Counted from the first letter of the stretch, positions 42,392 through 63,371 are shown. The stretch is DNA of 64,000 bases from Anaeromyxobacteraceae bacterium (GCA_047602405.1 JASGHJ010000001.1:1856001-1920000), one strand, 5' to 3'. Made by a program: numbers and translations. The notes: generated by a model not told the origin, from the sequence alone.

Positions 42392-45236
42392 GTGAAGGAA
42401 CACCGCGAGCGCGGCGAGCCCGTGGAGGTGGCGGGTCCCGGTCGGGAGGCACTCGAGCTCCTGCGCGTCACGCTCTCGAGCATCGGCGACGGCGTCATCT
42501 CCACCGACGACGAGGGGCGCGTGTCCTACGTGAACCCGGTGGCCGAGGCGCTCACCGGGTTCAGCCAGGCCGACGCCCGCGGGCGCCCGTTCACGGAGGT
42601 CTTCCGGATCGTCAACGAGGAGACGCGACGCCCGGTCCAGGACCCGGTGGCGCGGGTGATCCGGGAGGGCAGGATCCTCGGGCTCGCGAACCACACCCTG
42701 CTGCTGCGGCGGGACGGGTCCGAGACGCCGATCGACGACAGCGCGGCCCCCATCCGCGATCGAGAGGGCCGGGTGCGCGGCGTGGTGGTCGTCTTCCGGA
42801 GCGTGGCCGAGCGCCGGCGCGCCGAGCGCGAGGCCGCGCGGCTGGCCGCCATCGTGGAGTCGTCGCAGGACGCCATCGTGAGCAAGGATCTCGACGGCTT
42901 AGTCCTGACCTGGAACGGAGGCGCGGAGCAGGTCTTCGGCTGGCGGGCGGACGAGATCATCGGGCGGAGCATCACGCTCCTCATCCCGCCCGACCGGCTC
43001 GACGAGGAGCGTCAGATCCTCGAGAGCGTGCGCCGCGGCGAGCGCGTCGAGCACTACGAGACCGTGCGTCGCAGGAAGGACGGGCGGCTCATCCAGGTCT
43101 CGCTCGCGATCTCGCCGATCCGGGACGGCGCGGGCCGCATCGTCGGCGCGTCGAAGGTCGCGCGGGACATCAGCGCGCGCGCGGAGGCCGAGGCCCGGAT
43201 CCGCGAGAGCGAGGCGCAGTTCCGCTCGCTCGCGAACGCGCTGCCCGCCATCGTCTGGACCGCCACGCCCGAGGGCGCCATCACCTTCGCGAACGACGTC
43301 TGGTTCGACTACACGGGCCTCGCGCGGGAGGGCGGCATGAGCGGCTGGGCGGAGCGCGTCCTCCACCCGGACGATCGCGACGCGGCGGTGGCCGCCTGGA
43401 GAGCGTCGCTGCGCGACGGCGCGCCCATCGAGACGGAGCTCCGGAACCGCCGCCACGACGGCGCCTACCGGTGGTTCCTCTCGAGGGGGGTGCCCGTCCG
43501 CGACGCGGCGGGTGGGATCACGCGGTGGGTCGGGTCGATGATCGACATCGACGACCGAAAGCGCCTCGAGGGCCGCGCCCGGTTCCTCGCCGGCGCCAGC
43601 GCCGCGCTCGCCGCCACCGTGGATCGCGAGACGGCCCTCCGGCGGCTCACGCGGCTCGCGGTGCCGACGTTCGCCGACTGGTGCGCGGTCGACCTGCTCG
43701 AGCCGGACGGGAGCATCCGCCGGGTCGAGGTCGCCCACGTCGATCCGGCGAAGGAGGCGTACGCGCGTGAGCTCCACGCGCGGTATCCCGCCCGTAGGAC
43801 CGACGCGCGCGGGGTCGGGCTGGTCCTGCGGGAGAAGCGATCGGACCACGAGGCCTTCATCACGGACGAGCTCCTGGAGCGCGGCGCTCGCGACCCCGAG
43901 CACCTCCGCATCGCCCGCTCCCTCGGCCTCCGCTCGTACGTGAGCGTGCCCCTGCGCCTGCGCGGGCAGGTCCTCGGCGCGATCACCTTCGTCACGGCGG
44001 AGTCCGGCCGGGAGTACGGCCCGGACGACGTGGCGGTCGCGGAGGACCTCGCCGCGCGCGCCGCCGTGGCACTCGAGAACGCCAGCCTCGTCGCCGCGAT
44101 GCGCGACGCCGATCGGCGCAAGGACGAGTTCCTCGCGATGCTCTCCCACGAGCTGCGAAATCCGCTCGCCCCGATCTCCAACGCCGCCGCGCTCCTGCGC
44201 GCCGCGGGGCCGGGCGTTCCGGGGACGGACCGGGCCGTGGAGGTGATCGACCGGCAGGTGCGACACCTGGCACGGCTGGTGGACGACCTGCTCGACGTCT
44301 CCCGGATCACGTGGGGGAAGGTCGAGCTGAGGAGGGAGGTGGTCGAGCTCGGGACCGTGATCCGCGCCGCGGTCGAGGAGAGCCGGGGCACGATCGAGCG
44401 CCGGGGCCACGCGCTCGCGCTCGAGCTGCCAGGGGAGCCCATCGCGCTCGACGCCGACCCGATCCGCCTGGCGCAGGTCCTCTCGAACCTCCTCGTGAAC
44501 GCCGCGAAGTACACCGATCCAGGTGGACACATCCGGCTGTCCGCCGCCCGGGACGGGGACGAGGCGCGCGTGACCGTCCGCGACGACGGGATCGGCATCC
44601 CCGCGGCAGCGCTGCCCCGCATCTTCGAGCTTCTTCTCGCAGGTACCCGGCACGCACGGGCGCTCGGAGCGGGGGCTCGGCCTGGGCCTCACGCTGGTGC
44701 GGCGGCTGGTGGAGCTGCACGGCGGGTCGGTGATCGCGACGAGCCCGGGCCCGGGACGGGGCAGCGAGTTCGTCGTGCGGCTCCCGGTGGCGCGAGCGAG
44801 CGCACCCGCGACGGCGGCGACGGCGGAGGCGCCCCGGGCCCGCACCGGCCGTCAGCGGATCCTCGTCGTCGACGACAACCGCGACGCGGCCGACAGCCTG
44901 GCCGCCCTCCTGGAGCACGGAGGGCACGAGGTCCGGGTGCTCAACTCCGGCGCCGAGGCGGTGGACGCGTGCGCCCGGCTGCGCCCCGACCTCGTCCTGC
45001 TCGACCTCGGGCTGCCTGGGATGGACGGCTACGAGGTGGCGCGGCGCATCCGGGCGCTGGAGCACGGCCGCGGCGTCTTCATCGCGGCGCTCACCGGCTG
45101 GGGGCAGGCCGAGGATCGTCGCCGCACCCGGGAGGCGGGCTTCGACCGGCACCTCACGAAGCCCATCGACGTCGAGGTGCTCTCCGAGGTCCTGCGGTTC
45201 GTGCAAGACGGTGGTCCCGCAGCCCGGGGAGCCTAG
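42392..45236 (+). CDS. hybrid sensor kinase (3x PAS, GAF, HisKA, HATPase, REC), apparent +1 frameshift at ~44631
   Basis: LSHELRNPL, NAAKYT, DDGIG; removing one T restores FELFSQ..GLGLGL and the C-terminal receiver. Confidence 0.88.
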
Positions 45237-45504
45237 GGCGGGCGCAGCCGGGGGCTCCGCAGACCGGGACCGCCTCGCCACGGCACACGCAAACGAGCGT
45301 CGCGTAGCCGTCGCACGCGCACCACTCGCCTTGCTCGTATCCCGTCCGGCGACACTGGATCGCGCAGACGGCGTCCACGTCCTCGACCCGCTTCGAGCCG
45401 GGCGTGAGCTCCGCGACGGGCGCGGCGCGCTCGGGCGCCGGGTCGCCGCAGGCCGCGAGGACGAGCGCGAGGATGAGGCCAGGCAGCGGCCTTGCCCTGC
45501 TCAT
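45154..45504 (-). CDS. small cysteine-rich lipoprotein; true 3' end may be near 45233
   Basis: GGAGG RBS, lipobox LAAC, 8 Cys in the mature part. Confidence 0.55.
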   Translation of the reverse strand: MSRARPLPGLILALVLAACGDPAPERAAPVAELTPGSKRVEDVDAVCAIQCRRTGYEQGEWCACDGYATLVCVCRGEAVPVCGAPGCARPRLPGLRDHRLARTAGPRRAPRRRWAS

Positions 45505-47186: not shown

Positions 47187-50100
47187 TCATCGCCCCACCG
47201 CCTCCGGCTCCCGCACCTCCGCGAGCCACGCGTCCACGAAGGCCCGGTCGGCCTCCGGCGCCGCCGCGCGGAGCCGCGCGTGGAGCTCCCGCGCCGTCGC
47301 CCGCCCCCCGGGCCCGCGGTGGGCGGCGGCGAACGCGGCCAGCACGCCGTCGAGGCGGTCGGGGCCGAGCCGCTCGCGCAGCGCCTCGAAGGCGACGAGC
47401 GCCTTCGAGTAGTAGAGGTGCGGGACGTCCCCGGTGATCTCGACGAGCGGCGCCTCCTCCGACCCTCCGCGGCGGCGGAGGTACCGTTCGAGCTCGAACG
47501 CGCGCAGGCTCCGGACCTGCTCCGGGCCGCGCAGCGCCTCGAGCACCCGCGCCTCGGCGTACTTGGTCACGCCCTCGACGAGCAGCGCCGCGCCCGGCCC
47601 CGCGGCGGGCGCGACCTCGTGCCCCCACCACTGGTGCGCCACCTCGTGGGCGACCCGGCGCACCACGAGATCGATGGGCTGCTCGCGCCGCCCGTTCACG
47701 GCGAACACGCGGTGCTCGCCGAGCAGGACCACGCCCGGCATCGCGTAGCCGCCGAAGTCCCAGGTGGACGGCACCTCCACGAGCCGCAGCGCGGCGTGGG
47801 GGTACGGGCCGAAGCGGGCCTGCAGCACCTCGAGCGCGCCGCGGGCGGCCTCGAGGATCGCGGCCCGGTTCCAGGGGTGGCCGGGGTGCGCGTACAGCTC
47901 CACCTCCACCTCGCCGTGGCGCGCGCGCGTCACCTCGTACCGGGCGGAGGTCACCGCCAGGGCCCCGTGCACGGGGCGGTCGGTGCGCCACCGGGACAGT
48001 GCGCGGCCACCCTCCGTCCACGCCTGCTCGAGCCGCCCGGGCGCGACCGCGACCTGGTCGAGGTCGGTGGAGACGGTGAGGTCGAGGTTCACCCACGGCG
48101 AGACCGGAGCCCCGTCGCCGTCGCCGGGGATGGCGCGGGCGCGGCCGCGCTCCGGGAGCCCCGCGGCGCGCCGCTCCCGCGGCTCCACGAGCTCGTACGA
48201 GCCGCGGTAACCCACGCCCGGGAACGCCCGGTGGCCGAACACGAGCGAGCCGTTCGCGACGACGTCGGCGTCCGACGGATCACCGGGCGGGTGCTCGAGG
48301 TCGAAGGCGAGCGCGGTCCGCTCCCCGGGGGCGAGCGGCGGATCGAGCGAGAAGGTGAAGACGCCGTGTCGGGCATCGGCGGCGGGCGGCCCGGCGCGGT
48401 CGAGCGCGAGCGAGACCACCCGGGCCTCGCGGCGCACGGTGACGTGGACGCTCGCGATCGGCCGGGCGCCGTCGTTGACGAGCCGGAGCGTGCCGCGCGA
48501 CCGGTAGCGCCCCGCCCCGGGCTCGAGCTCGAGCCGTGCCTCGATCGTCTCGATCCGCGGCTGGGGCGCGTCGGCGACCGCGCCGTAGGTGCGCTCGTAG
48601 GCGGCCTTCCCGGCGCTGACCTCCGCCCGCGTGCGGTGGCCGCCCTGCGCCGCGAGCCCCGCGTGGAGCCGTACGCCGGCCGCGACGGCGACGAGCGCGA
48701 GCGCCGCGGCCGCGGCGAGGAGCCCGCGGGTCGCGCGGGCCGGCCGGGCGCCCCGCCGGACGAGGAGGCCCGCGCCGGCGAGGAGCAGCCCGAGCACGGC
48801 GGCGCCGTACGCCCCGCGGAGCGCGAGGTCCGGGAGCGTCGCGCCGAAGCCGGCGAGGTCGGACCAGCGGAGGCGGGGGAGACTTCCCGGGCGCAGGAGG
48901 GGGTGCTCCACCCCGAGGAGGTCGGCCCGCAGGAGCAGCGCCGCGAGGGGGAGCGTCAGGAGGAGCCCCACGTGCCGCGCCGGCGCGAGCACGTGGACGG
49001 CCGCGCAGCCGGCCGCGAGGAGCACGAGCTCCGCGGCGCCGCCCGCGGCGAGCGCCAGGGTCACGCCGGGCTGGAAGGCGGGGGCCCGGAAGAGGACCTG
49101 GGTGGCGAGGACGGTCGCGGCGCCGGCGAGCGCCAGCGCCGAGGCGAGCGCCGCGAGCGCCCCGACCTTCGCGAGCAGGATCACCTCGCCGGGGACGGGG
49201 GCCGCGTGGACGATCCCCTCGACACCCACCGTGCGCTCCCGCCAGAAGATCTCGGAGGCCCAGAGCAGCACGGCGACGGTGCCGAGCACGGTGAGCGGCT
49301 CGTCCAGGCGAGGGGCGAGGAGCCCGGCCAGCGGGAGGAAGCCCGACCCGTACTCGCCACGCGTCACGGCCGGCCAGAGCTCCGGCACGAGGTAGACGAG
49401 GAAGCAGCCGACGAGCAGCGGGAACGGGAACCCCCGCAGCGCGAGCCGGGCCTCGAGCGCCGTGGACGAGGCCAGCGAGGCGATCCAGCGCGGGCGCGGC
49501 GGTGAGCCCCGCCGGACGGGCGGCGTCGGGACCGGTCCGGACTCCGGCTCGCGCCGCAGGCGACCGCCGGGTTCGAGGAGGCGGAACGGATGGCGCCACG
49601 CGGTCGCGCCGAGGACCGCCGCCGACACGGCGACCCACAGGAGCCGGTTCGCGAGGAGGGCGCCCGCGAGCGGCGGCAGGCGGCCGTTGCGCTCGGCGAG
49701 CGTGAAGTGCCGCGTCGCCTCGAAGAACGCGGACAGGCCCACCGGGTCGAGGAGCGCGGCGAGCCGATCCGGCCCGGCGCCGGGCGAGGAGGCGGCCATG
49801 ACGGGCGAGGAGGTCAGGGTGGCCGCGACGAAGTAGAGGACGTAGAGCGCCACGCTCGTGACGTGGCAGGCGGCGGCGCTGCGGGTCAGGGCGCCCACCG
49901 CGAAGAGCGCGGCGGCGGCGACGAGCACGCCGGGCAGGGCGAGCACGGCGAGCGCCCAGAGGTAGGGCCCGACGCCAGGCGCCCCGAGGCGGTCCAAGGG
50001 GATCGCGCCGGACAGCGGCGCGGCCACCATGCCCGCCACCCCCGCCGAGAGCACCGCGAGCGCGGCGAGGAGGGCGCCCGCGAAGCGGCTCCCGAGGAAC

Positions 50101-50378
50101 GCGCCGCGGCGGACCGGGGTCGAGAAGATGACCTCCTCGAGGCGGTGCTCGCGGTCGCGGAGGATGGCGCCCGACACGAGGACGCCGAGCGGGAACACCG
50201 TGGCGAGCGTGAGCAGGCCCGTGATCTCCGCGACGAGGTAGGGCGAGTTCGCGTGGGCGTCGCCGCCCCCGAGGCCCGCGGTCAGCGCGAACCCGAAGAG
50301 GGCGAAGAGCGCCGCGGCAGCGGCGAGCGCCGGCTGCCGGAGCTGGGTGCGGAGCTCGAAGAGGAGGAGGGATCCCAG
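47187..50378 (-). CDS. ABC-2-type permease fused to M1-family metallopeptidase
   Basis: Two permease halves (RDRE...EE.IFSTP, ER...VE.I..A.P); HEVAHQWWG...EG HEXXH-E; probable CTG start at 50378. Confidence 0.85.
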   Translation of the reverse strand: MGSLLLFELRTQLRQPALAAAAALFALFGFALTAGLGGGDAHANSPYLVAEITGLLTLATVFPLGVLVSGAILRDREHRLEEVIFSTPVRRGAFLGSRFAGALLAALAVLSAGVAGMVAAPLSGAIPLDRLGAPGVGPYLWALAVLALPGVLVAAAALFAVGALTRSAAACHVTSVALYVLYFVAATLTSSPVMAASSPGAGPDRLAALLDPVGLSAFFEATRHFTLAERNGRLPPLAGALLANRLLWVAVSAAVLGATAWRHPFRLLEPGGRLRREPESGPVPTPPVRRGSPPRPRWIASLASSTALEARLALRGFPFPLLVGCFLVYLVPELWPAVTRGEYGSGFLPLAGLLAPRLDEPLTVLGTVAVLLWASEIFWRERTVGVEGIVHAAPVPGEVILLAKVGALAALASALALAGAATVLATQVLFRAPAFQPGVTLALAAGGAAELVLLAAGCAAVHVLAPARHVGLLLTLPLAALLLRADLLGVEHPLLRPGSLPRLRWSDLAGFGATLPDLALRGAYGAAVLGLLLAGAGLLVRRGARPARATRGLLAAAAALALVAVAAGVRLHAGLAAQGGHRTRAEVSAGKAAYERTYGAVADAPQPRIETIEARLELEPGAGRYRSRGTLRLVNDGARPIASVHVTVRREARVVSLALDRAGPPAADARHGVFTFSLDPPLAPGERTALAFDLEHPPGDPSDADVVANGSLVFGHRAFPGVGYRGSYELVEPRERRAAGLPERGRARAIPGDGDGAPVSPWVNLDLTVSTDLDQVAVAPGRLEQAWTEGGRALSRWRTDRPVHGALAVTSARYEVTRARHGEVEVELYAHPGHPWNRAAILEAARGALEVLQARFGPYPHAALRLVEVPSTWDFGGYAMPGVVLLGEHRVFAVNGRREQPIDLVVRRVAHEVAHQWWGHEVAPAAGPGAALLVEGVTKYAEARVLEALRGPEQVRSLRAFELERYLRRRGGSEEAPLVEITGDVPHLYYSKALVAFEALRERLGPDRLDGVLAAFAAAHRGPGGRATARELHARLRAAAPEADRAFVDAWLAEVREPEAVGR

Positions 50379-50482: not shown

Positions 50483-53400
50483 TCACGGCGGCCGGCCGCA
50501 CCAGTAGCGCTCGACCGCGGACGGCGTCGCCGGCACCGCCACGAAGAAGCCGGCGGGGGTGGCCCCGCCGACCGGGTGCCCGGGCGCGGTGGGCTGGGCG
50601 TGGCAGCCGATGCAGGACGCGAGGGTGTTGCCCGCGAACGAGATCGTGGAGTGGTTGATCCCGTTCACGGCGAGATACGCCGCGTCGGCGCGCGCCTGGT
50701 CGCACCGGAAGTAGCCGACGTTCACGGTGAACGCCGCGGTCGCGGTCCCCTCGTTGCCCGCGGCGTCGACGACCCGGATGTTGAAGCTCACCGGCGAGCC
50801 CGAGACGGGCTGCAGCGCCGGGGAGGCCGGGTTGTAGGCCGGGAGCGCCGTGCTCGTCGTGTCGACCACGGTGAGGCCGGTGTCGAGGGACGCCTCGTAG
50901 CAGTTCGCGCCGCAGACGTTCGACGGCGTGACCACGAGCGGGGTCGTCCCGCGGCGCAGGCTGATCGACTCCCCGGCGCCGAGGGCGCCCGAGAGGGTGA
51001 ACCGGAAGATCGGGGTCGCGTCGTCGGTGTTGCCGCCGTTCGCGATGAGGTTGCTGGCCGGATTGGTCGCGCCGGCGGGTGCGGTCGTGGGCGCGAAGTC
51101 GCTCCGGACCTGGTTGAGGGTGATGGTCTGGGCCGGCGCGACGGTGTCCACGGTGAGGCTGTACGTGCCGCTCGCCGTGCCGGCGATGGGGCCGGCGAGG
51201 GTGTGCACCGTGTACGCGTGCAGGCCCTGGGTCGCGCCGGAGTCCGTGAACGTGCAGGGCGACGCGCAGGTCGAGAGGGGCGTGCCGGCCTGGGCGCCGT
51301 CGCGCAGCACCTCGACCTGGTAGCCGGCCGGGAGCGCCGCGGCGAGGGTGACCGTGAGCGTGGGCGTCGTGTCCGGGATCGCGCCGCCGGAGGCGACGAC
51401 GGTCCCGTTCGGCCGGGTGGGGCTCCCCGTGCCGGACACCGCCGCGCTCGTGATCGTCGCGTTCGGCAGGCTCGTCGCGAGGATGAGGTTCACCGTGTGC
51501 GTCGGGCTCGCCGCGGCGGTGCCGCCGTTGCCCGCGTCGTCGCGGACGTCCGCGCCGTAGGCATGCGAGCCGAGCGCGACCGCGGCCGGCTCGACGTAGG
51601 ACCAGGTGGTGCCGGCCGGCCGGAGCTTCGCGATCTCGACGCCGTCGCGCGTCAGCCGGAGGTAGTCGGTCGCGGCGAGGGCCGCGGTGAGCGTCCCGTC
51701 GATCCGCGGCGTGACGTCGGTCGAGTACGTGTCCGTGCGGACCGCGAGCGCGCCCGAGTCGTCGTAGATCGTGGAGATCGTCGCCCCCTGGGTGGGCGCG
51801 GTGCCGTCGATGGGATCGGAGACCGACGCGCTCGTGAGCCCGAACACCGCGGCGTTCGCCGCCTGCTCGATCCGGGCGCGGAACGCGTAGGTGCCGTCGG
51901 CGAGCGAGGCGCTCGTGAAGGTCCAGCTCGTGGTCGTGACCGTCCCGTTCCCGACCGCCACGTTGTCCCGGTAGACCTTCACGACCTCGCCCGCGACGAG
52001 CGCGCGCTGGAGCGTGCCGGCGAGCACCGGGGTCCGGACGTTGTTGAGGGCCACCGCGCTGTTCACCGGCGCGACCCCGTCGATCGTCGCGAGCGTGGTC
52101 GCCGCGCCGATGAGCGGCACGGAGGAGGTGTTCACCACCACGCTGCGCGAGGCGCCGGAGGCGGGCCCGAGCTGGCCCGCGGCGTCGAGCACCCGGGCCG
52201 TGTACGCGTAGGTGCCGTTCGCGAGCGAGGTGGGCTCGGCGAAGCCGAAGGTCAGGCCCGAGGCGGCCACCGTGGCCACGGCCACCCCGCCCCGGAGCAC
52301 CTGCACCTGCTCCCCGGCGCCGAGCGCCGCGGAGAGCGTGCCGGACACGAGCGGCGTCGGGTCGGCGGTGGTGGCGCCGTCGGCGAGCGCGCCGTTGAAG
52401 TCGTCGGCGATGCCGGTCACGTTCGCGACCTGCGCGGGCGGGACGGTGTCGACCGTGGCGGACCACGGCCCGGAGAAGTTCCCGAGCACGAGCCCCGCCT
52501 CGACCCGCGCGGTCCACGCGTACGTGCCGTCGGCGAGGCTCGAGTCCGTGAAGCTCCAGGTCGTGCCGGTCGCGGCGGCGGCGCCGGCGTCGACGCCGTT
52601 GCGGCGGATGCGCAGCGCGTAGCCCGGCTGCAGCGCCGCCGTGAGGGTGCCGGACACGACCAGCGTCCTCGAGGTGGTCGAGGCGCCGCTCGCGAGCGGC
52701 GCCCCCCCGGCGGTCACATGGGTGATCGAGGCCCCCGGGAGCGCCCCGACGGCCGTGTACGTCGCGGCGGGCGAGCTCGCGCCGACGTTGCCGGCGAGGT
52801 CGATCACCCGCGCCGCGTACGCGTGGGCCGCGAGGGTGAGCGCCGCGGCCTCGGCGTAGGTCCAGCCGGTGCCGCTGACGGTCGCGCTCCCCACGAGGCT
52901 CCCGTCGCGCAGCACCTGCAGCGCCTCGTCCGCGGCGAGGCCCGCGGTGAGCGTACCGTTCACGACGGGCGTCGTGTCGGTCCCGAAGCCGCCCGGCGTC
53001 ACCGCGCCGAGGAGGTCGTCCTGGAAGCCGGTGATGGCGGCGAGCTGGGCGGGCGGGGTCGCGTCGATGCTGAAGGTGAAGCCGTTCGAGGTGGCGCCGA
53101 AGTCGACGCCGGAGACGACCCGCGCCGTGTACGTGAACGTGCCGTCTGCCGGGGCGGCGTCGGTGAACGTCCAGGCCGTGCCGGTCGCGTTCGCCGTGCC
53201 GGCGACGGCGCCGCTCCGGGAGACCTCGAGCGATTCGCCGGAGTCGAGCGGCGCCGAGAGCGACCCGTAGATCACCGGCGCGCGGGTCGCGACGAGGCCG
53301 CCGGGCGGGATGGGCAGCGCTGCGGCGTCGGTGGCGCCGGTCACCGTCGCGGTCGTCTCGAGCGTGGGGAGCAGCCCCGAGCTCGGCTGCGCGCAGGTGG

Positions 53401-55921
53401 GGACCATCGTGTTGAGCGGGCGCGCGAGCACCGACTGGTGGCAGGTGGCGCACACCGTCCCGGGCGGTGTGAACGTGTGGCGCGGCGGGATGGTGCAGGG
53501 ATCGGTGATGAGCGGCGGATCGACGAAGCCGCGCGGAACGAGGCCCGCCGGTGGCGCGCAGCTGGGCCACGCACCCGAGGCCTGGAACGGCTGCTTCCCG
53601 TCCGGGGTCGTGATCGGGTAGTCGATGCGCGCCGGGTTGTGGCACTGCACGCAGACCGTCTCGGCGCGGATGAGGTAGCCGAGCGGCCCCTCGTGGATGC
53701 CCGGCGGGATCTGGCACGCGGGCAGCCCGGTCGTGCTGGGCGCGAGCGCCTGGTACTCGACGAGCGGCCGGTCGAGGTACTGGTGGCACGCGATGCAGTC
53801 GACGCGCGGCCCCTGGCCCTGGGGCCGGTGCTGGCTCGCAGGGTTCGCGGGATCGAACGCCTCGGCGACGCGGCCGCGGACCTTCCAGTAGCCGCCCGCG
53901 TAGTCGACGCCGAGCCCGGTGAGCCGGTCGAACGCGCGCAGGCCGTAGCCGATGTAGCCGCCGGGGAGGAGGTCGCGGAGCGGCGGGAGCCCGAGGACGC
54001 GCACCGGGGTGAGATCCCTGAGGACCATGCCCGCGGTCATGTCGAAGTGCACGCCCCACGCCCAGACCTGGCCGTCGTCGAGCAGCGCCGCGAACACGGC
54101 CTGCTCGGTGAGGAGCTTGCGGATGCCCACGCCCGCCGGGAACCCGGTGATCTGCGTGGGCACGAGGTTGCCGCCGGTGTACGGCAGCGAGGGATCGTGG
54201 GCCACGAAGGCCGGATCGGGCGCGGGGAAGCTGCCCCACTGCCACACCGTCCCGTCGGCCTTCACGACCGCGACGTCGAGGTCGCGCGCCGCGAGCTGCG
54301 TGACGCCCGCGAGCCCGGGGACCTTCGCCGGCGAGGTGGAGCGCCCGTTCCGCAGGCCGTCGCCGAGCAGGCCGTAGCCGGCCTCCGAGCCCCACGCCCA
54401 GACGGTGCCGTCCGCGAGCAGCGCGTAGCTCGCGACCGTCGTCGCGCCGACCGTGAGCGCCTTCGCGGGCAGCGTCACCTGGAGCGGCGTCGTCGAGCGG
54501 CGCAGCTCGGCCCCGGTCTTGCCCTGGCCGAGCTGGCCGTAGGCGTTGTCGCCCCACGCCCAGACGGTGCCGTCGGCGAGCCGCGCGACCGTGTGCGCGA
54601 ACCCGCCCGCCGCGAAGGTGAGCGTCGCGCCGGCGGGGAGCGTCGTGAGCTCGATGCCCGAGCCGCCGGTGGAGGACCGGTTGCCGAGCCCGAGCTCGCC
54701 GTTCACGTTGTCGCCGAGCGCGTAGATCCTGGGCGTGCCGCTCGCCGCGTCCGCCTTGAAGTACCCGCCGCCGTGCCCCATGTTCGCGAAGAGCCCCGCG
54801 GTGCGGGTCACGAAGGAGACCTTCTGGTCGGTGTTGCCCGGCTGCTTGCCGAGGGCGTTGCCCGCCACCCAGCCGGCGACCGTCGAGTACGCCTGGCCGC
54901 CGCTCGTGACCGAGCCGTCGAAGAGGTAGCCCTGGTAGCGCGTGTTGCCGAAGCTCACCAGCGGCGGGAGCTTCTGGGTGACCTCGGCCTTGCCGTAGCG
55001 CTCCACCTGCTGCGCGAGGCCGGAGACGAGCTCGGTGCCGAAGGCGCCGGGCTCGTAGGCGCGCCGGTCGGCGGGCGCGGCGGGGAGGGTGCCGTTCAGG
55101 CCGTCGAGGCGCCCGTCCTTCAGGTCCTCCGCGAGCTCGTCGGTGGCGTCGAGGCCGGGCGAGGTGGACGCGCCGTTCGCGCGCTGGGCGAGCTTCGTGA
55201 GGGCGCCCTCCACGAGCGCATAGCGGCCGCGGGCGTCCGAGCCGAGGCTGCCGGCCGCGTTCTTCGCGTTCCGCTGGCCCGGCAGGCGGGTCAGATCGTC
55301 GAGCTGCAGCGAGGCCGGAAGGAAGGCGTTCAGGACGCCCCGGACGCGGTCGTTCGCGGCCTGGAGCTGCGCCGCCGTGGGCACGCCGTCGACGCGCTCG
55401 GGTGTCGAGCCGGCGGTGAGGACCTGGTGGGCCGCCTCGGTGAACGCGGTGACGCCGACGTTGCGGCGCAGGATCGGCACCCACGCGTGGAGCACGCGGC
55501 CCTCGGGGAACGGCACCGCCGCGTCGAGGCCCTCGTCGTGGATCGTCGCGCTGGCGGTGCCCTTCACGACGACGTGCAGCCAGCCGGTGTAGGTCGGCGA
55601 GGGCTTCGCCGTCACGAGGCCGGTGGTCGCGTCGGTGGGCGCGCTGCCGAGGAGCTCGCCGTCGGCGAGCCACGCCTCCACGGTCGCGCCGAAGAACTTG
55701 CCGCCGATCGCGATCCCGCCCTGGCCGTCGGCGCCGGTGCCGACGCCGTTCACGCCACCGTCCGCGAGGTCCCAGTCGAGGTCGCCGGTGAAGCCGGTGG
55801 AGAGGAGGTTCTTCGCCTGCGGCGGCGGGGAGCCGTCCGGCGCCGGGTCGAGCTTCACGGTGCAGCTGGCCACGGCCAGCGGCATCGCGGCCAGGAGGGC
55901 GAGGCGGGTCGGTGCGCGCAT
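50483..55921 (-). CDS. large surface lipoprotein: RCC1 repeats, 3 CXXCH, 8 Ig-like repeats, terminal CXXCH
   Basis: Lipobox VASC; DGTVWAWGDN.YGQLG repeats; CIACH, CVQCH, CATCH, CIGCH; TP...GTL..W..T..LADGTY repeats. Confidence 0.85.
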   Translation of the reverse strand: MRAPTRLALLAAMPLAVASCTVKLDPAPDGSPPPQAKNLLSTGFTGDLDWDLADGGVNGVGTGADGQGGIAIGGKFFGATVEAWLADGELLGSAPTDATTGLVTAKPSPTYTGWLHVVVKGTASATIHDEGLDAAVPFPEGRVLHAWVPILRRNVGVTAFTEAAHQVLTAGSTPERVDGVPTAAQLQAANDRVRGVLNAFLPASLQLDDLTRLPGQRNAKNAAGSLGSDARGRYALVEGALTKLAQRANGASTSPGLDATDELAEDLKDGRLDGLNGTLPAAPADRRAYEPGAFGTELVSGLAQQVERYGKAEVTQKLPPLVSFGNTRYQGYLFDGSVTSGGQAYSTVAGWVAGNALGKQPGNTDQKVSFVTRTAGLFANMGHGGGYFKADAASGTPRIYALGDNVNGELGLGNRSSTGGSGIELTTLPAGATLTFAAGGFAHTVARLADGTVWAWGDNAYGQLGQGKTGAELRRSTTPLQVTLPAKALTVGATTVASYALLADGTVWAWGSEAGYGLLGDGLRNGRSTSPAKVPGLAGVTQLAARDLDVAVVKADGTVWQWGSFPAPDPAFVAHDPSLPYTGGNLVPTQITGFPAGVGIRKLLTEQAVFAALLDDGQVWAWGVHFDMTAGMVLRDLTPVRVLGLPPLRDLLPGGYIGYGLRAFDRLTGLGVDYAGGYWKVRGRVAEAFDPANPASQHRPQGQGPRVDCIACHQYLDRPLVEYQALAPSTTGLPACQIPPGIHEGPLGYLIRAETVCVQCHNPARIDYPITTPDGKQPFQASGAWPSCAPPAGLVPRGFVDPPLITDPCTIPPRHTFTPPGTVCATCHQSVLARPLNTMVPTCAQPSSGLLPTLETTATVTGATDAAALPIPPGGLVATRAPVIYGSLSAPLDSGESLEVSRSGAVAGTANATGTAWTFTDAAPADGTFTYTARVVSGVDFGATSNGFTFSIDATPPAQLAAITGFQDDLLGAVTPGGFGTDTTPVVNGTLTAGLAADEALQVLRDGSLVGSATVSGTGWTYAEAAALTLAAHAYAARVIDLAGNVGASSPAATYTAVGALPGASITHVTAGGAPLASGASTTSRTLVVSGTLTAALQPGYALRIRRNGVDAGAAAATGTTWSFTDSSLADGTYAWTARVEAGLVLGNFSGPWSATVDTVPPAQVANVTGIADDFNGALADGATTADPTPLVSGTLSAALGAGEQVQVLRGGVAVATVAASGLTFGFAEPTSLANGTYAYTARVLDAAGQLGPASGASRSVVVNTSSVPLIGAATTLATIDGVAPVNSAVALNNVRTPVLAGTLQRALVAGEVVKVYRDNVAVGNGTVTTTSWTFTSASLADGTYAFRARIEQAANAAVFGLTSASVSDPIDGTAPTQGATISTIYDDSGALAVRTDTYSTDVTPRIDGTLTAALAATDYLRLTRDGVEIAKLRPAGTTWSYVEPAAVALGSHAYGADVRDDAGNGGTAAASPTHTVNLILATSLPNATITSAAVSGTGSPTRPNGTVVASGGAIPDTTPTLTVTLAAALPAGYQVEVLRDGAQAGTPLSTCASPCTFTDSGATQGLHAYTVHTLAGPIAGTASGTYSLTVDTVAPAQTITLNQVRSDFAPTTAPAGATNPASNLIANGGNTDDATPIFRFTLSGALGAGESISLRRGTTPLVVTPSNVCGANCYEASLDTGLTVVDTTSTALPAYNPASPALQPVSGSPVSFNIRVVDAAGNEGTATAAFTVNVGYFRCDQARADAAYLAVNGINHSTISFAGNTLASCIGCHAQPTAPGHPVGGATPAGFFVAVPATPSAVERYWCGRPP

Positions 55922-56786: not shown

Positions 56787-57487
<701 letters not shown>

Positions 57488-57491
<4 letters not shown>

Positions 57492-59677
57492 CGCCGAAGA
57501 GGGACAGCATCCGCATCCTCCTCACGATCGCCTTCCGGAACCTGCTCGCCTCGCCGGTCCGGACCGCGATCCTGGGTGGGATCATCCTGCTCGGCTCGCT
57601 CATCGTGGTGGTGGGCACGTCCGTGCTCGACTCCATCGATCGCGGCATGCGCACGAGCATCCAGGGCAGCCTCGGCGGCCAGCTCCAGCTCTACGACGGC
57701 CGCTCGGAGGACCAGCTCGCGCTCTACGGCGGCATGACCGGCGAGTCGCGCCTCGAGCCGATCGAGGACTTCTCGGTCGTGAAGGCGGCCCTCGAGAAGG
57801 TCCCCGGCGTGAAGCAGATCGTGCCGATGGGCATCGACCAGGCGATGGTCGCGACCGGCAACGCCTTCGACCTCGCCCTCGAGCGGCTGCGCAACGACGT
57901 GCGGCGCCTGGAGGCCGGCGAGCGGGGCCCGGAGCTCGAGCGTTCCTACACGGCGCACGTCGCGCACGTGAAGCGGATGATCGAGCTCCTCGCGGCGGAC
58001 TACGCGCAGGCGGCGGTCATCGTCGACCTCGACTCGAAGGAGGGCGCCGAGCGCCGCGCCGAGGCGAAGAGCCTGACCCGCGTGCGGGAGCCGGAGTTCT
58101 GGGAGGGCCTCGACCGCGACCGCTACGCCCGGCTCGAGTTCCTCGAGAACAAGATCGCGCCGCTCGTGATGGACGGCGGGTTCACCTTCCTGCGCTACGT
58201 GGGGACCGACCCGAAGGCGTTCTTCGAGGCGTTCCCCCTCGCCGAGGTCTCGAAGGGCCAGATGATCCCGGAGGGCAAGCGCGGCATCCTCGTCGGCGAG
58301 CAGTACGCCGACGAGTGGCTGAAGCTCAAGAACGCCCGCCGGCTCGACCAGATCCGCGACCGGCGGCGGGACCGCGGCAAGAAGATCGCCGACGACGAGG
58401 AGCTGCAGCGCTGGGTGCGCGAGAACCGGAGCGGGATCCGCGAGATCCAGCTCCAGCTCGACCCGGTGCGCGCCGAGGAGGTGGCGGCGGCCCTCAGGCC
58501 GGCGCTCGGCGGCGAGGGCGACGACCTCGAGAAGCTCCTCCAGAAGCTCTTCGCCACCACCGACCAGGACTTCGACCAGAAGTACAAGCTCTTCTACGAC
58601 GTGGTCGCGCCGAGGATCCGGCTCTACCAGGTGAACGTCGGCGAGACGATCACCATCAAGGCCCCGTCGAAGAGCGGCTACTTCAGCTCGATCAACGTGA
58701 AGGTCTACGGCTTCCTGCGCTTCAAGGGCATCGAGAAGTCGGGCATCGCCGGGATGATGTCGGTGATGGACATCCACTCCTTCCGCGACCTCTACGGCTA
58801 CCTCACGCCGGAGAAGCAGGAGGAGATCGCGGCGATGAAGGCGAAGCTCGGCGCGCGCGAGGTCTCGCGCGAGGACGCCGAGGCCGCGCTCTTCGGCGGC
58901 GGGGCCGCGCCGGCGGTGGAGGCGGAGGCGCGCTCGACCACCATCGACGACGCGAAGCTCGTGGCCGGGGCGGGGAGGGCGAACGCCCAGGCCGCGGCGT
59001 CCGCCGACCGCGTCTACACGGCGGCCGAGGTCGAGAAGGGCGTCGCGCTCAACGCGGCCGTCATCCTGAAGGACCCGGCCCACATGGCCGAGGCCCGCGA
59101 CGACATCGAGCAGGCCCTCGCCGCCGCGGGCCTGGGCTACCACGAGGAGAAGGACGCGAAGGGCGAGGTGGTCTCGAAGGCGGGCGTGAAGGTGCTCGAC
59201 TGGCAGACCGCCTCGGGCATCGTCGGCCAGTTCGTGACCCTGCTCCGGGTGGTGCTCTTCACCGCGGTCCTCATCTTCTTCGCCATCGCGCTCGTCATCA
59301 TCAACAACGCGATGGTCATGGCGACGCTCCAGCGCGTGAAGGAGATCGGCACCATGCGCGCCGTCGGCACGCAGCGGCGCTTCGTGGTGGTCATGCTGCT
59401 CGTCGAGATCGTGTCGGTGGGGCTCGTCTTCGGCCTCGGCGGCGCGGTGCTCGGCGGCGTGGTGGTGGGGCTCATCCGGCTCGCGGGCGGCATCCCCGCC
59501 ACCACCGACATGCTCTACTTCGTCTTCTCCGGCCCGGCGCTCTTCCCGCGCCTCGGCGCGCTCGCGGTGGGGACCTCGCTCACCATCGTGCTGCTCGTCG
59601 CGATCCTCTCCGCCCTCTATCCGGCGCTGCTCGCCATGAAGGTCTCGCCCGTCGAGGCGATGGCCACGGAGGAATGA
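57488..59677 (+). CDS. FtsX/MacB-type ABC permease with large periplasmic domain
   Basis: AFRNL, R.KEIGTMRA.G, C-terminal A...SPVEAM. Confidence 0.9.
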
Positions 59678-60993
59678 CCGTGCTCCTCATGGACCTCGAG
59701 CTCGCGGGCCGCAACCTCGCCCGCCACGCCCGCCGGAACCTGTTCCTCGGCGGCGCGCTCGGCGCGGTGACCTTCCTCCTCGTGCTCCTCGGCGGCCTCA
59801 CCACCGCCATGGAGCAGGCGATGATGCAGTCCGCCGAGACGCTCCTCACCGGCCACGTCAACGTGGGCGGCTTCTTCAAGGTGACCGCCGGCAGCGCGGC
59901 GCCGCTCGTCTCGGACTACCCGAAGGCGCTCGAGACCCTGAAGAAGGAGGTGCCGGACATCGACTTCTACACCTCGCGCGTGCGCGCCTGGGCGAAGGCG
60001 GTCTCCGAGACCTCCTCAATGGACCTCGTGCTCGGCGGCATCGAGGTCGACGAGGAGCCGGCGCTCCCGAAGGTGCTCAACGTCATGGAGGGCAGCCTCG
60101 ACGAGCTCCGGAAGCCCGGCACGCTGCTCCTGTTCGAGGCGCAGGCGAAGCGGCTCAAGGTGAAGGTGGGCGACGCGATCACCATCTCCGCCCCGACCGC
60201 CCGCGGGGTTAACAACACCGCCGACGTGCGGGTGGCCGCGGTCGCCCGCGACGTGGGGCTGCTCTCGTCCTTCTCGGCGCTCATGGAGGCCTCCTCCGTG
60301 CGCGCGCTCTACGGCCTCAACACGACCACCACCGGCGCCATCCACGTGTACCTGAAGGACGCCTCGCCCGAGCACCTCAAGGCCGTCGCCGCGCGGCTGC
60401 GCACCGCCTACTCGAACGCGGGCTGGCGGGTGATGGAGCCGGAGGCGCAGCCGTACTGGATGAAGCTCATGCAGACGGTGCCGGCGGAGGACTGGACCGG
60501 CCAGAAGCTCGACATCACCACCGCCGACGACGAGATGGGGCAGTTCAAGCAGTTCATCACGGCGCTCCGGGTGGTGACCGGCCTGCTCGTCTTCATCCTC
60601 ATGATCGTGGTGGTCATCGGCATCCTCACGACGCTCACGATCGCGGTGCGCGAGCGGACGAAGGAGATCGGCACGCTGCGCGCCATCGGCATGCAGCGGA
60701 CGAAGGTGCTCTGGCTCTTCGTGCTCGAGACCGGGCTCCTCGGCCTCCTCGGCACCCTGGCCGGGGCCCTGGGCGCGGCCGCGCTCGCCGGCCTCGTCAA
60801 CCGCGCCTCCATCGCGCTGCCCGCCGCGGTCCAGGTGTTCCTCGCGATGGACCACCTCCGCATCGCGCTCGTCCCCGCCGCGATCCTCGGAAACATCGTG
60901 TTCCTCACGGTCGTGACCGTGTTCGCCTCGATCTTCCCCGCCCGCCGCGCCGCGCGCCTGAAGCCCGTCACGGCCATGCACCACATCGGATGA
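59674..60993 (+). CDS. FtsX/MacB-type ABC permease
   Basis: RNLARH.RR, ERTKEIGTLRAIG, PARRAARLKPV. Confidence 0.9.
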   Translation: MTVLLMDLELAGRNLARHARRNLFLGGALGAVTFLLVLLGGLTTAMEQAMMQSAETLLTGHVNVGGFFKVTAGSAAPLVSDYPKALETLKKEVPDIDFYTSRVRAWAKAVSETSSMDLVLGGIEVDEEPALPKVLNVMEGSLDELRKPGTLLLFEAQAKRLKVKVGDAITISAPTARGVNNTADVRVAAVARDVGLLSSFSALMEASSVRALYGLNTTTTGAIHVYLKDASPEHLKAVAARLRTAYSNAGWRVMEPEAQPYWMKLMQTVPAEDWTGQKLDITTADDEMGQFKQFITALRVVTGLLVFILMIVVVIGILTTLTIAVRERTKEIGTLRAIGMQRTKVLWLFVLETGLLGLLGTLAGALGAAALAGLVNRASIALPAAVQVFLAMDHLRIALVPAAILGNIVFLTVVTVFASIFPARRAARLKPVTAMHHIG

Positions 60994-61775
60994 CCGCCAT
61001 GAACCGCCTCGCCACCGCCGCCGCCCTCGCCCTCGCCGGCCTCCTGGCCGGGCCCGCCCGCGCCCTGACCGACGCGGAGCTCGCCTCCATCGTGAAGGTC
61101 ATCGACGACCGCCAGCGCAACTCCGGCGACTGGAAGGCGCTCTGCTGGATGGAGGCGAAGGAGAAGGGCAAGACCGACGTCGTCTACGAGCTGCTCGTCT
61201 ACCGCCGCGACGCGGACGACAAGCAGATGTTCCTGTTCACGAAGCCGAAGGCGGAGGCGGGGAAGGGCTACCTGCGCCTCGACAAGAACCTCTGGCTCTT
61301 CGACCCCTCGACCGGCCGGTGGGAGCGCCGCACCGAGCGGGAGCGCATCGGCGGCACCGACACCCGCCGCGGCGACCTCGACGAGTCGCGCCTCGCCGAG
61401 GAGTTCGACGCGAAGTACCTCGGCGAGGGCACCCTGGGCGCCTTCACCGTCCAGAAGATCCAGCTCGACGTGAAGCCGAACGTGGACGTCGCGTTCCCGC
61501 GCATCGAGCTGTGGGTCGACAAGGCGACGCTCAACGTGCTGAAGCGCTCGGAGTACGCGCTCTCCGGGAAGCTGATGCGCACGAACTACTACCCGCGCTG
61601 GAAGAAGATCTACTCCGAGTCGAAGAAGGGCGAGGTCTGGTTCCCGGAGGAGATGCGGATCTTCGACGAGATCGAGAAGGGCAACTCGACGACCATCCTG
61701 ATCAAGGAGGTCGACCTGAGGCCCCTCGAGGCGAACATGTTCACGAAGGCGTGGCTGGAGTCGAAGTCCAGGTAG
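60990..61775 (+). CDS. outer-membrane lipoprotein-sorting (LolA-like) protein
   Basis: Signal peptide; F..P..EAGKGYL...NLW..DP; GTD...D; Y..SGKLMR. Confidence 0.8.
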   Translation: MTAMNRLATAAALALAGLLAGPARALTDAELASIVKVIDDRQRNSGDWKALCWMEAKEKGKTDVVYELLVYRRDADDKQMFLFTKPKAEAGKGYLRLDKNLWLFDPSTGRWERRTERERIGGTDTRRGDLDESRLAEEFDAKYLGEGTLGAFTVQKIQLDVKPNVDVAFPRIELWVDKATLNVLKRSEYALSGKLMRTNYYPRWKKIYSESKKGEVWFPEEMRIFDEIEKGNSTTILIKEVDLRPLEANMFTKAWLESKSR

Positions 61776-61780
61776 CCACC

Positions 61781-63371
61781 ATGAGAACCTTCGCGCTCGT
61801 CGTCGTCGCTGCGCTGCCGGCGCTGGCTCTCCCTCAGGAGCGTCCCACCGAGGACGAGCTTCTTCGGGAAGCCCGCCGCGCCCGCGGAGCCCTCCACGCA
61901 GAAGCCGCCGCCCGACCCGGGCGACCGCGCCGCGCACGAGGCCGAGATGTTCGGCTCCACTGGCGCGCCCGCCTCGCAGCCGCCGCCGCCCGAGGGGCTC
62001 ATCAAGAAGGACCAGGAGGATCCGCTCAAGATCGGCGGGCAGGTCTACCTGCGTGGCCAGGCCGCCTGGTACGAGCGCCAGTCGGGCTCGGAGGGTCCGC
62101 TCTCCACCCCGAACCTCGTCGACCTCTTCCTCGACGCGCGCCCCAACGACCGCGTCCGCGCCTTCGCGCTCGCGCGCACGAGCTGGAATCCCACCGGCGG
62201 CGGCTCGGCCGGGCCGTTCCAGGACCTCCTCGGCGCGCTCGGCGTGCCGCCGGCCTCCACCGCGAGCACGCAGCCCCGCGCCGTGCTCGACCAGCTCTGG
62301 CTCAACTTCGACGCGGACCGGAAGGTCTTCGTCACGGTCGGCAAGCAGCACGTGAAGTGGGGCGTGGGCAAGTTCTGGAACCCCACCGACTACCTCCACC
62401 CCACGAAGCGCGACCCGCTCGCCGTCTTCGACGCGCGCACCGGCACGACGATGATCCGCGCGCACGTGCCCTGGGAGAAGTACGGCTGGAACTTCTACGG
62501 CATCGGCCTCCTCGAGGACGCCTCCGGCGCGGCGCAGCCGGTCGACACCGTCGGCCGGGTCGGCGGCGGCGCGCGCGCCGAGCTCGTCCTCGGCGCCGCG
62601 GAGCTCGGCCTCGACGCGCTCGTGCAGAAGGGCAACCACCCGCGCTTCGGCGTGGACCTCTCCGCCGGCATCTGGGAGCTCGACCTCTACTCCGAGCTCG
62701 CGGTGCGCACGCAGACCGACGTCGGCCGCTGGAGACAGGTGGACGCGACGGCCGGGCTCAACCAGCGCTACGCGCGGGTGGAGAGCTCCGGCTTCGAGCC
62801 GCAGCTCGTGGTGGGCGGCAGCTGGACGCGGCAGTACGGGAAGGACCAGGACACGTTCACGCTGGGCCTCGAGTACTTCTGGAACGGCTTCGGGTACGAC
62901 GACCCGCACATCTACCCGTTCCTCCTCGTCGGCGCGCCCGCCTGGAACGGCAAGGAGCCGGTCGTCGGAGGCGTGCCGAGCGACTACCTCACGTTCCGCG
63001 ACCCGCGCGCGTTCACGTCCTTCTACCTGGGCCGGCACTACCTCGGCGCGTACGCGATGCTGCCGCAGCCCGGCTCGTGGAACGACACCACCTTCACGCT
63101 CTCGGCGCTCGGAAACGTCACCGACAAGAGCTTCGTGGTCCGGCTCGATCACTCGGTGCTCGTGAACACCTACCTGCGCGTCGAGACCTTCGTGTCCGTG
63201 AACGGCGGCGCGAAGGGCGGCGAGTTCCGCCTGGGCCTCGACCTCGAGCCGCAGCTCGTGGTGAAGGGCGTGGCGCCGGACCCGGACATCTACTTCCCGG
63301 CGCAGGGGTCCACGCTCTCCATCCCGGCCCCGGTCGTGTCGGCCGGCGTGGCGTTGAGGGTGAGCCTCTAG
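61781..63371 (+). CDS. predicted outer-membrane beta-barrel protein, apparent +1 frameshift at ~61860
   Basis: Signal peptide from ATG 61781 joins the 61947 ORF after removing one T; GKQ.VKWG.G.FWNPTD; amphipathic C-terminus LRVSL. Confidence 0.7.

Follow-up and report, generated by a model that had tools for sequence, protein, structure and literature searches.

PgcA of Geobacter sulfurreducens is a lipobox protein whose heme-free N-terminal domain is cleaved in the course of secretion and whose small heme domains are kept far apart by a tether. The cut falls within the secretion domain, the protease is not yet identified, two hemes are His-Met ligated, the tethers are unstructured Pro-Thr stretches and a swinging, tethered redox contact is proposed (PMC10570954). 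OmcZ, a polymerising octaheme c-type cytochrome with Ig domains in its precursor, is served by a dedicated protease, the subtilisin OzpA, which according to the accessible text removes the C-terminal part of the precursor (PMC9473688). The hemes of the OmcZ and OmcS nanowires are continuous and close-packed. LapA, a large repeat protein that is type I secreted and heme-free, has its own extracytoplasmic cysteine protease in LapG, a transglutaminase-like, LapD-regulated enzyme. LapG controls LapA (10.1101/2020.05.11.089839). SiiE (PDB 2yn3) is also type I secreted and heme-free, with 53 Big_13-type repeats and Asp residues at the domain junctions, where, in the available part of the report, interface Ca sites stiffen domain pairs (PMC5466336). 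Prokaryotic orthocaspases and metacaspases can combine a Peptidase_C14 domain and its His-Cys dyad with WD40 repeats and an export signal; the accessible sections of the surveys treat these features in general terms and name no substrate or partner for the exported forms (PMC3501461, PMC5756287).

The heme lipoprotein described here is a 1812 aa protein encoded on the minus strand at 50483..55921 (GC3 0.98) of the window, a 64,000-nucleotide stretch of an Anaeromyxobacteraceae genome. A sequence-only reading of the window had proposed a lipobox, RCC1-type repeats, three clustered CXXCH motifs, eight Ig-like repeats and a fourth CXXCH at the tip, all of which were recovered. The translated ORF and aligned rows place a signal peptide and the lipobox V-A-S-C20 at 55862..55921 (minus strand), and among the matches listed the lipobox Cys is kept in all 105 aligned homolog rows, followed by GG in 100, SS in three and TV in two, with Asp in none of the 105. 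Lipoproteins that lack Asp after the lipidated Cys are sorted to the outer membrane, and the absence of this residue suggests that the protein would be exported as an outer-membrane lipoprotein. The sequence-only reading had passed over a 275-residue N domain between the lipobox and the propeller, as well as six further invariant cysteines (C736, C788, C809, C843, C1740 and C1808). Pfam recognises RCC1 and RCC1_2 above their cut-offs together with Big_13, and an RCC1-like domain match lies below its curated cut-off. No match to the c7, c3, MtrC II/IV or paired-CXXCH families was found in Pfam at E 0.1 or in NCBIfam. Look-alikes in the Atlas are cytochromes, with scores of only 0.81-0.84 that serve as leads. 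In an AlphaFold2 model of residues 21-905 (pLDDT 88.1, pTM 0.89), the N domain, propeller and triheme module are predicted to form one compact head.

The RCC1/UVR8-type beta-propeller spans residues 316-690 (53852..54976, minus strand), and the proposed RCC1-type repeats are borne out both by Pfam and by the fold. A structure search aligned 336 residues with UVR8 (8gqe_B; Z 31.9, rmsd 3.7), and a BLIP-II entry was matched at Z 17.5. The fold is the same as in the RCC1, UVR8 and BLIP-II propellers, but none of the matched structures has a c-type heme module, unlike this lipoprotein. The three clustered hemes on the propeller also distinguish it from PgcA.

The triheme module follows at residues 691-855 (53357..53851, minus strand) and comprises three CXXCH motifs, C736, C788, C809, C843, H743 and H815. 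The motifs lie exactly where they had been placed: CIACH at residue 709 (53783..53797), CVQCH at residue 757 (53639..53653) and CATCH at residue 824 (53438..53452), all on the minus strand. The fourth motif, at residue 1770 (50600-50614), is equally exact in position and belongs to a tip monoheme domain (residues 1738-1812; 50486..50710, minus strand) together with C1740, H1757 and the YWC1808 sequence. The composition of the ORF would lead one to expect 0.0025 such motifs, against the four observed. A homolog search with residues 320-860 returned 1579 matches, of which the 120 listed, less 11 that were RCC1-only, left 109 sequences including the query. Loss of the CXXCH motifs in homologs had been named as grounds for abandoning the cytochrome assignment, and they are kept: among the matches listed, 108-109 of 109 have intact head motifs, the triheme module keeps thirteen Cys and His positions in 109/109 and C757 in 108/109, and the tip motif is found in 104/109. 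Conservation of CXXCH in an exported protein makes c-type heme likely, and the four motifs very probably each bind one.

The genomic surroundings of the family include the maturation genes ccmB/C/E, which adjoin 11 of the 47 homolog loci, all in one clade and probably reflecting one event, and a CycH-type Ig gene, which adjoins five. The genome of the window itself has ResB and 31 ORFs with at least three CXXCH motifs by a rough ORF filter, and no match to ccmB/C/E or to the CycH-type Ig gene. It is conceivable, though very improbable, that the Cys and His clusters bind zinc or form disulfides and that the protein contains no heme at all; the six extra invariant cysteines, the missing Pfam cytochrome match and the modest Atlas scores would be in keeping with this. 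The strict CXXCH order in all four motifs, the CX3CH and CX4CH variants of the tip, the ccm and CycH-type neighbours and the exported location all speak against it.

How the hemes are ligated is less uniform. The sequence around hemes 2 and 3 and the tip follows one order, Cys...His...CXXCH...Cys, and this suggests small bis-His units closed by a Cys-Cys disulfide staple, with H743 and H815 as candidate distal ligands of hemes 2 and 3. CxIPPx(x)H motifs had been put forward as the source of the distal histidines; two are indeed present (C736-H743 and C809-H815), but these are too few for three hemes, and with at most two distal His in the head the motif cannot serve all of them. H743 is found in 108/108 aligned rows among the matches listed, and position 752 is His in 85 of the 109 (Arg in the window's copy). 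In a distant clade H743 is replaced in 11/11 rows and H383 is also absent, and the stretch around H743 lacks any His in 9 of 42 copies, so heme ligation is not uniform across the family. No Met is conserved and Cys pairs flank the motifs, in contrast to the His-Met hemes in the available account of PgcA (PMC10570954). The head hemes may instead have His/Cys ligation. Heme 1 has no conserved distal His within its own module. At propeller position 625, 69 of the 109 homologs among the matches listed have His, 39 have Tyr and one has Phe, which makes His625 a candidate ligand; heme 1 would either take His/Tyr625 from the propeller or retain an open site.

In another reading the head would act as an enzyme or a sensor: heme 1, without a distal His of its own, lies against the conserved propeller face and binds or converts a small ligand, hemes 2 and 3 relay electrons and the tip is an independent sensing or binding cap. 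Such a role has a precedent in cd1 nitrite reductase, which also joins a propeller to heme. Among the homologs listed, the propeller has 116 near-invariant positions, and its invariant polar residues are numerous (R328, Y332, D335, R546, D547, D549, R601, K602, E606, D627, R649, D650, Y659, R662, R666, K680, R682 and E687); together with His/Tyr at 625, two distal His for three hemes and the compact head model they lend this reading some weight. On the other hand the structure matches are binding scaffolds of the RCC1/UVR8 type and not enzymes, the invariant residues may merely form the interface between propeller and hemes, and no metabolic genes are conserved near the loci, all of which leaves an enzyme or sensor an unlikely though not negligible option.

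Module-to-module profile comparisons aligned the CXXCH cores alone. The triheme module was sought in shorter proteins and none was found, and across the 172 genomes of one family the matches to the triheme module and the tip fit this gene only. The tip alignment comprised 105 tails, four having been left out as they are without the domain, and C1740, H1757, the tip CXXCH and C1808 each recur in 103-105 of 104-105 rows among the matches listed. The 104 tip motifs from those matches are CX2CH in 90, CX3CH in three and CX4CH in 11. Both longer spacings also occur in c3-type cytochromes. Some relatives do without the tip, which is absent in 5 of the 109 homologs among the matches listed; three of these five have Calx-beta domains. 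Its model is of low confidence (pLDDT 65, pTM 0.36), and a structure search with it gave no match at Z of at least 2, which given the quality of the model has no bearing on novelty.

Between head and tip lies the stalk (residues 856-1737; 50711..53356, minus strand), in which Pfam and a repeat scan resolve the eight expected Big_13-type Ig repeats, of alternating types A and B. Across homologs the stalk has 4 to 12 repeats, and the heme-free gap between heme 3 and the tip, 946 residues in the window's copy, clusters at about 500, 700-750, 950 and 1400 residues, in two-repeat steps. Where 4, 6, 8 or 12 repeats were detected in a protein, a linker Asp ends 267/293 odd versus 7/293 even repeats, and a D-x-[AV]-G motif occurs in 180/293 even versus 4/293 odd repeats. 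The stalk profile matches SiiE with an E value of 3.8e-14; a direct residue-level alignment to SiiE was not obtained, and the Asp motifs occur at the A-to-B junctions only, that is at alternate junctions of a far shorter stalk than in the available SiiE account (PMC5466336). The two alternating repeat types and the change of length in pairs suggest rigid pairs with hinges, and the stalk would thus consist of calcium-clamped A-B pairs connected by freer B-A joints.

It had been pointed out that the tip heme is too far from the others for direct transfer along an extended stalk, and this distance problem proves real and general, with gaps of about 500 to 1400 residues throughout the family. An Ig repeat is roughly 3-4 nm long, so that eight span about 26-32 nm, and electron tunnelling has a range of about 1.4 nm. 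Contact between the tip heme and the head would therefore need bending of the stalk or a second molecule. Four motifs in 1812 aa are also a density far too low for a nanowire of the OmcZ or OmcS kind. The tether differs from the unstructured Pro-Thr stretches of PgcA in being built of folded Ig repeats.

The N domain (residues 40-315; 54977..55804, minus strand) is composed, according to the AlphaFold2 model and profiles, of a Gly-rich segment, a beta-sandwich and a helical part with the motif DxxDGxxDG. It matches no family in Pfam or NCBIfam, its Atlas matches carry no family name, and its profile bears a weak likeness (probability 19) to a generic lipoprotein N domain. The N domain spans 672 clusters at 50% identity, and the hundreds of exported proteins that share it are mostly free of heme: CXXCH occurs in only 7 of 142 new representatives, a lipobox by pattern in 97. 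In the 44 of these 142 that were scanned, the cargo consists mainly of Ig repeats and of propellers of the RCC1, Kelch, lactonase and NHL types, and one protein (P0246) bears a GH5 cellulase domain in addition to the N domain and Ig repeats. A single genome holds up to 11 N-domain matches among the 172 genomes of one family. The domain is also found deep inside proteins and in one non-lipoprotein, which means that lipid release is not its sole use. Four lipoproteins (L054, L055, L057 and L058) have a second, generic N-terminal domain ahead of the N domain, the two showing a weak mutual profile likeness. In another N-domain lipoprotein (L053 5571-7118, plus strand) the cargo is a very long stretch of prolines with Ala-Asn repeats after it, possibly an artefact of assembly.

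The usual partner of the heme lipoprotein is a WD40-caspase, a protein of about 1000-1200 aa that joins WD40 repeats to a Peptidase_C14 domain. Scanning of genomes yielded 47 loci; the WD40-caspase was found at 32 and was absent from seven, and the other eight had less than 1 kb of upstream sequence. It adjoins the lipoprotein gene in 32 of the 39 loci with upstream context, in four arrangements, lying directly upstream in 29 (one a remnant) and divergent, convergent or downstream in three. The GHG and DTC motifs of the His-Cys dyad are intact in 41/41 WD40-caspases, and the 33 N-termini that were viewed show, by eye, a hydrophobic, export-signal-like stretch ahead of the propeller. Six MAG loci (L008, L011, L023, L029, L031 and L035) contain a protease or lipoprotein gene that is a remnant or has a broken frame, attributable to either sequencing error or decay. 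Four Methylibium loci (L015, L019, L021 and L022) have two copies of the heme lipoprotein beside one WD40-caspase.

The WD40-caspase is linked to the N domain and not to heme, as it is adjacent to heme-free carriers of the N domain in 8 of 16 regions. A reading modelled on the apoptosome, in which cytochrome c on a double WD40 propeller activates the caspase, is disfavoured, since proteins with the N domain but no heme also sit beside this protease. The WD40-caspase is present somewhere in 4/4 and 5/5 of the Burkholderiales genomes checked. The 172 genomes of one family comprise 30 with both genes, nine with the N domain only, four with the protease only and 129 with neither, and in them an N-domain gene lies within 9 kb of 31 of 51 protease genes (many contigs being short); among 222 genomes of the genus Rubrivivax, all 13 with a close protease orthologue fall among the 15 with the triheme module, and the remaining two have truncated protease genes beside it. 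These co-occurrence counts come from kin and MAGs that are not independent of each other, and the profiles were built from some of the same genomes. A mirror-distance test over 16 pairs gave Spearman coefficients of 0.61 for the WD40 part and 0.43 for the caspase part, which shared history could explain. Taken from gene context and co-occurrence, a functional link between N-domain lipoprotein and WD40-caspase in the donor lineages is probable with good confidence, and that the protease actually cleaves the lipoprotein is slightly favoured. The pair resembles OmcZ and OzpA in joining a c-type cytochrome gene to a dedicated protease, but differs from what the accessible OzpA account describes (PMC9473688) in that the partner is a WD40-caspase tied to an N-terminal domain. 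It is likewise set apart from the exported orthocaspases of the surveys, as available (PMC3501461, PMC5756287), by a subfamily that tracks one tag domain.

Two candidate lines of evidence were set aside. The Asp-Gly sites in the Gly-rich loop of the N domain are not supported as caspase sites, since the loop varies and the C14 proteases of non-animal origin characterised to date favour basic P1 residues (PMC5756287); the analysis pinpointed no cleavage site. An apparent fusion of protease and N domain in P0143 resembles frameshift run-through and was left uncounted.

The carriers of the heme lipoprotein are mostly Burkholderiales and not metal reducers. All 47 loci are from MAGs; one is from Anaeromyxobacter and the others are from Rubrivivax, Methylibium, Ideonella, Rhizobacter, Lautropia and further, mostly beta-, proteobacteria. 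A search of 201 genomes in the window's order found the N domain in only two. The window's copy groups with L001 in a quick, midpoint-rooted tree of 47 rows, and their clade nests among 18 rows that are mainly from Rubrivivax (support 100). The gene occupies a slot between smr and lolD; of 10 other congeners examined, seven have these two genes side by side and three hold other inserts between them. The sole congener that carries the gene (G078 C5 462900-478157) has an orthologue that is 77% identical amid flanking proteins that are 91-99% identical, which may reflect either fast divergence or replacement. No cognate WD40-caspase was found among the C14 matches of the window's own genome, which are five other C14 proteins, and one was looked for and not found in the Anaeromyxobacter MAG. 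It is likely that the gene was transferred from a Rubrivivax-like donor without the caspase.

Several neighbours of the gene in the window call for comment. On the plus strand at 56787-63371 are a LolD-like ATPase, two FtsX permeases, a LolA-like protein and a 474-aa protein without family assignment; this cassette was considered as a dedicated exporter and rejected, as its permease is present in 37/37 genomes of the genus and the cassette marks the insertion site only. On the minus strand at 47187-50198 an ABC-2 membrane region is fused to an M1 peptidase domain, with a start that may be truncated or frameshifted; this gene is absent from the same slot in G078, which indicates a separate insertion. 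A multi-PAS/GAF histidine kinase at 42392-45307 (plus strand) has a HATPase match that stops early, and a receiver-like ORF at 44697-45236 overlaps it, which suggests a frameshift.

The copies without a protease provide a natural control for the tag. The three proteins of the Anaeromyxobacter clade have lost 23, 23 and 26 of the 95 N-domain positions that are invariant in the other 106, whereas their propellers have lost 6, 4 and 5 of 116 positions and their heme modules 1-2 of 37. The ratio of N-domain to propeller losses is 4.7-7.0 in this clade versus 0.7-1.2 in nine full-length distant rows, the truncated L032 and the in-sample L013 being set aside, and 2.6-3.0 in the protease-bearing rows L027 and L028. 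The erosion comes from one clade of three sequences and one evolutionary event. It fits relaxed selection on a surface recognised by the protease, with the heme head still constrained.

As a whole, the lipoprotein is best read as a protease-matured, PgcA-like tethered redox protein of short range and not a wire, a reading to which we assign a probability of roughly 0.4. It is proposed that the protein is exported to the outer membrane, that the exported WD40-caspase recognises the N-domain tag and then likely cuts it, and that the lipoprotein is subsequently displayed on, or released from, the cell surface. The four CXXCH motifs would receive c-type hemes, and the hinged stalk would let the tip heme swing back and forth, from a redox partner on the outside to its own head or that of a neighbouring molecule. 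The window's copy, in a genome without a cognate protease, would remain unprocessed and lipid-anchored. That electrons are in fact passed to outside acceptors is a tentative suggestion, held at clearly less than even odds. No porin-cytochrome conduit is a conserved neighbour of the 47 loci, and this counts against a respiratory role; in two of the 47, a 16-19-heme gene and a TPR protein lie downstream in convergent orientation (L023 13113-18150 and L046 13290-17816, the latter on the minus strand).

The orientation of the protein in the membrane bears on this scheme. Were the lipoprotein to face the periplasm, its tip heme would reach a redox partner in the inner membrane, and most of the partner proteases have Sec-type signals and could be periplasmic. 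A stalk that varies from 4 to 12 repeats conserves no fixed span for such a role and the GH5 cellulase domain on one N-domain protein suggests an outside cargo, so that a periplasmic orientation appears very unlikely.

The breadth of the N-domain family raises a different alternative, namely that the protein is mainly an adhesin or surface receptor under display-and-release control resembling that of LapA by LapG, with its heme modules acting as structural staples or as a redox switch controlling whether the WD40-caspase cuts. The scarcity of CXXCH among the N-domain representatives, the predominance of propellers and Ig repeats in their cargo, the many matches per genome and the likeness of the stalk to SiiE all agree with this, as does the control of LapA by LapG in the available part of that work (10.1101/2020.05.11.089839). 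Four costly, near-invariant heme motifs and the ccm linkage nevertheless exceed the needs of a staple, the C-terminal position of the stalk means that an N-anchored protein would hold its propeller near the membrane, and no LapD-like regulator is linked to the genes. An adhesin is thus considered quite unlikely, and the tethered redox lipoprotein is retained as the preferred reading.

Each ingredient of this system has a precedent, whereas the combination and the pairing of tag and protease appear undescribed in the literature searched. Titles and the beginnings of abstracts, in sources free of subscription and exclusive of supplements, gave no description of the heme-lipoprotein family, and the accessible text of PMC11495043 contains no passage on RCC1 or caspase.

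Exported caspase-like proteases are common in bacteria, and the surveys, as far as available, name no substrate for them (PMC3501461, PMC5756287); the N domain offers a specific candidate substrate tag, with protease-less copies and their eroded tag as a natural control. A more far-reaching and rather doubtful possibility is that the N domain and the exported WD40-caspase constitute an undescribed pathway of cargo tagging and processing for surface proteins of Burkholderiales, possibly sortase-like, the heme cargo being a swinging-arm cytochrome that transfers electrons from its tip heme to the triheme-propeller head over tens of nm. The sortase-like variant would have the protease cut the Gly-rich tag and then release or re-attach the cargo, for which PorU and PorZ of type IX secretion provide an analogy. 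The cytochrome architecture itself matches no named heme family and occurs in relatives of Rubrivivax, Methylibium and Ideonella, which are not established metal reducers. Its number of ligands is unusual, and its stalk would make electron transfer by a swinging arm directly testable.
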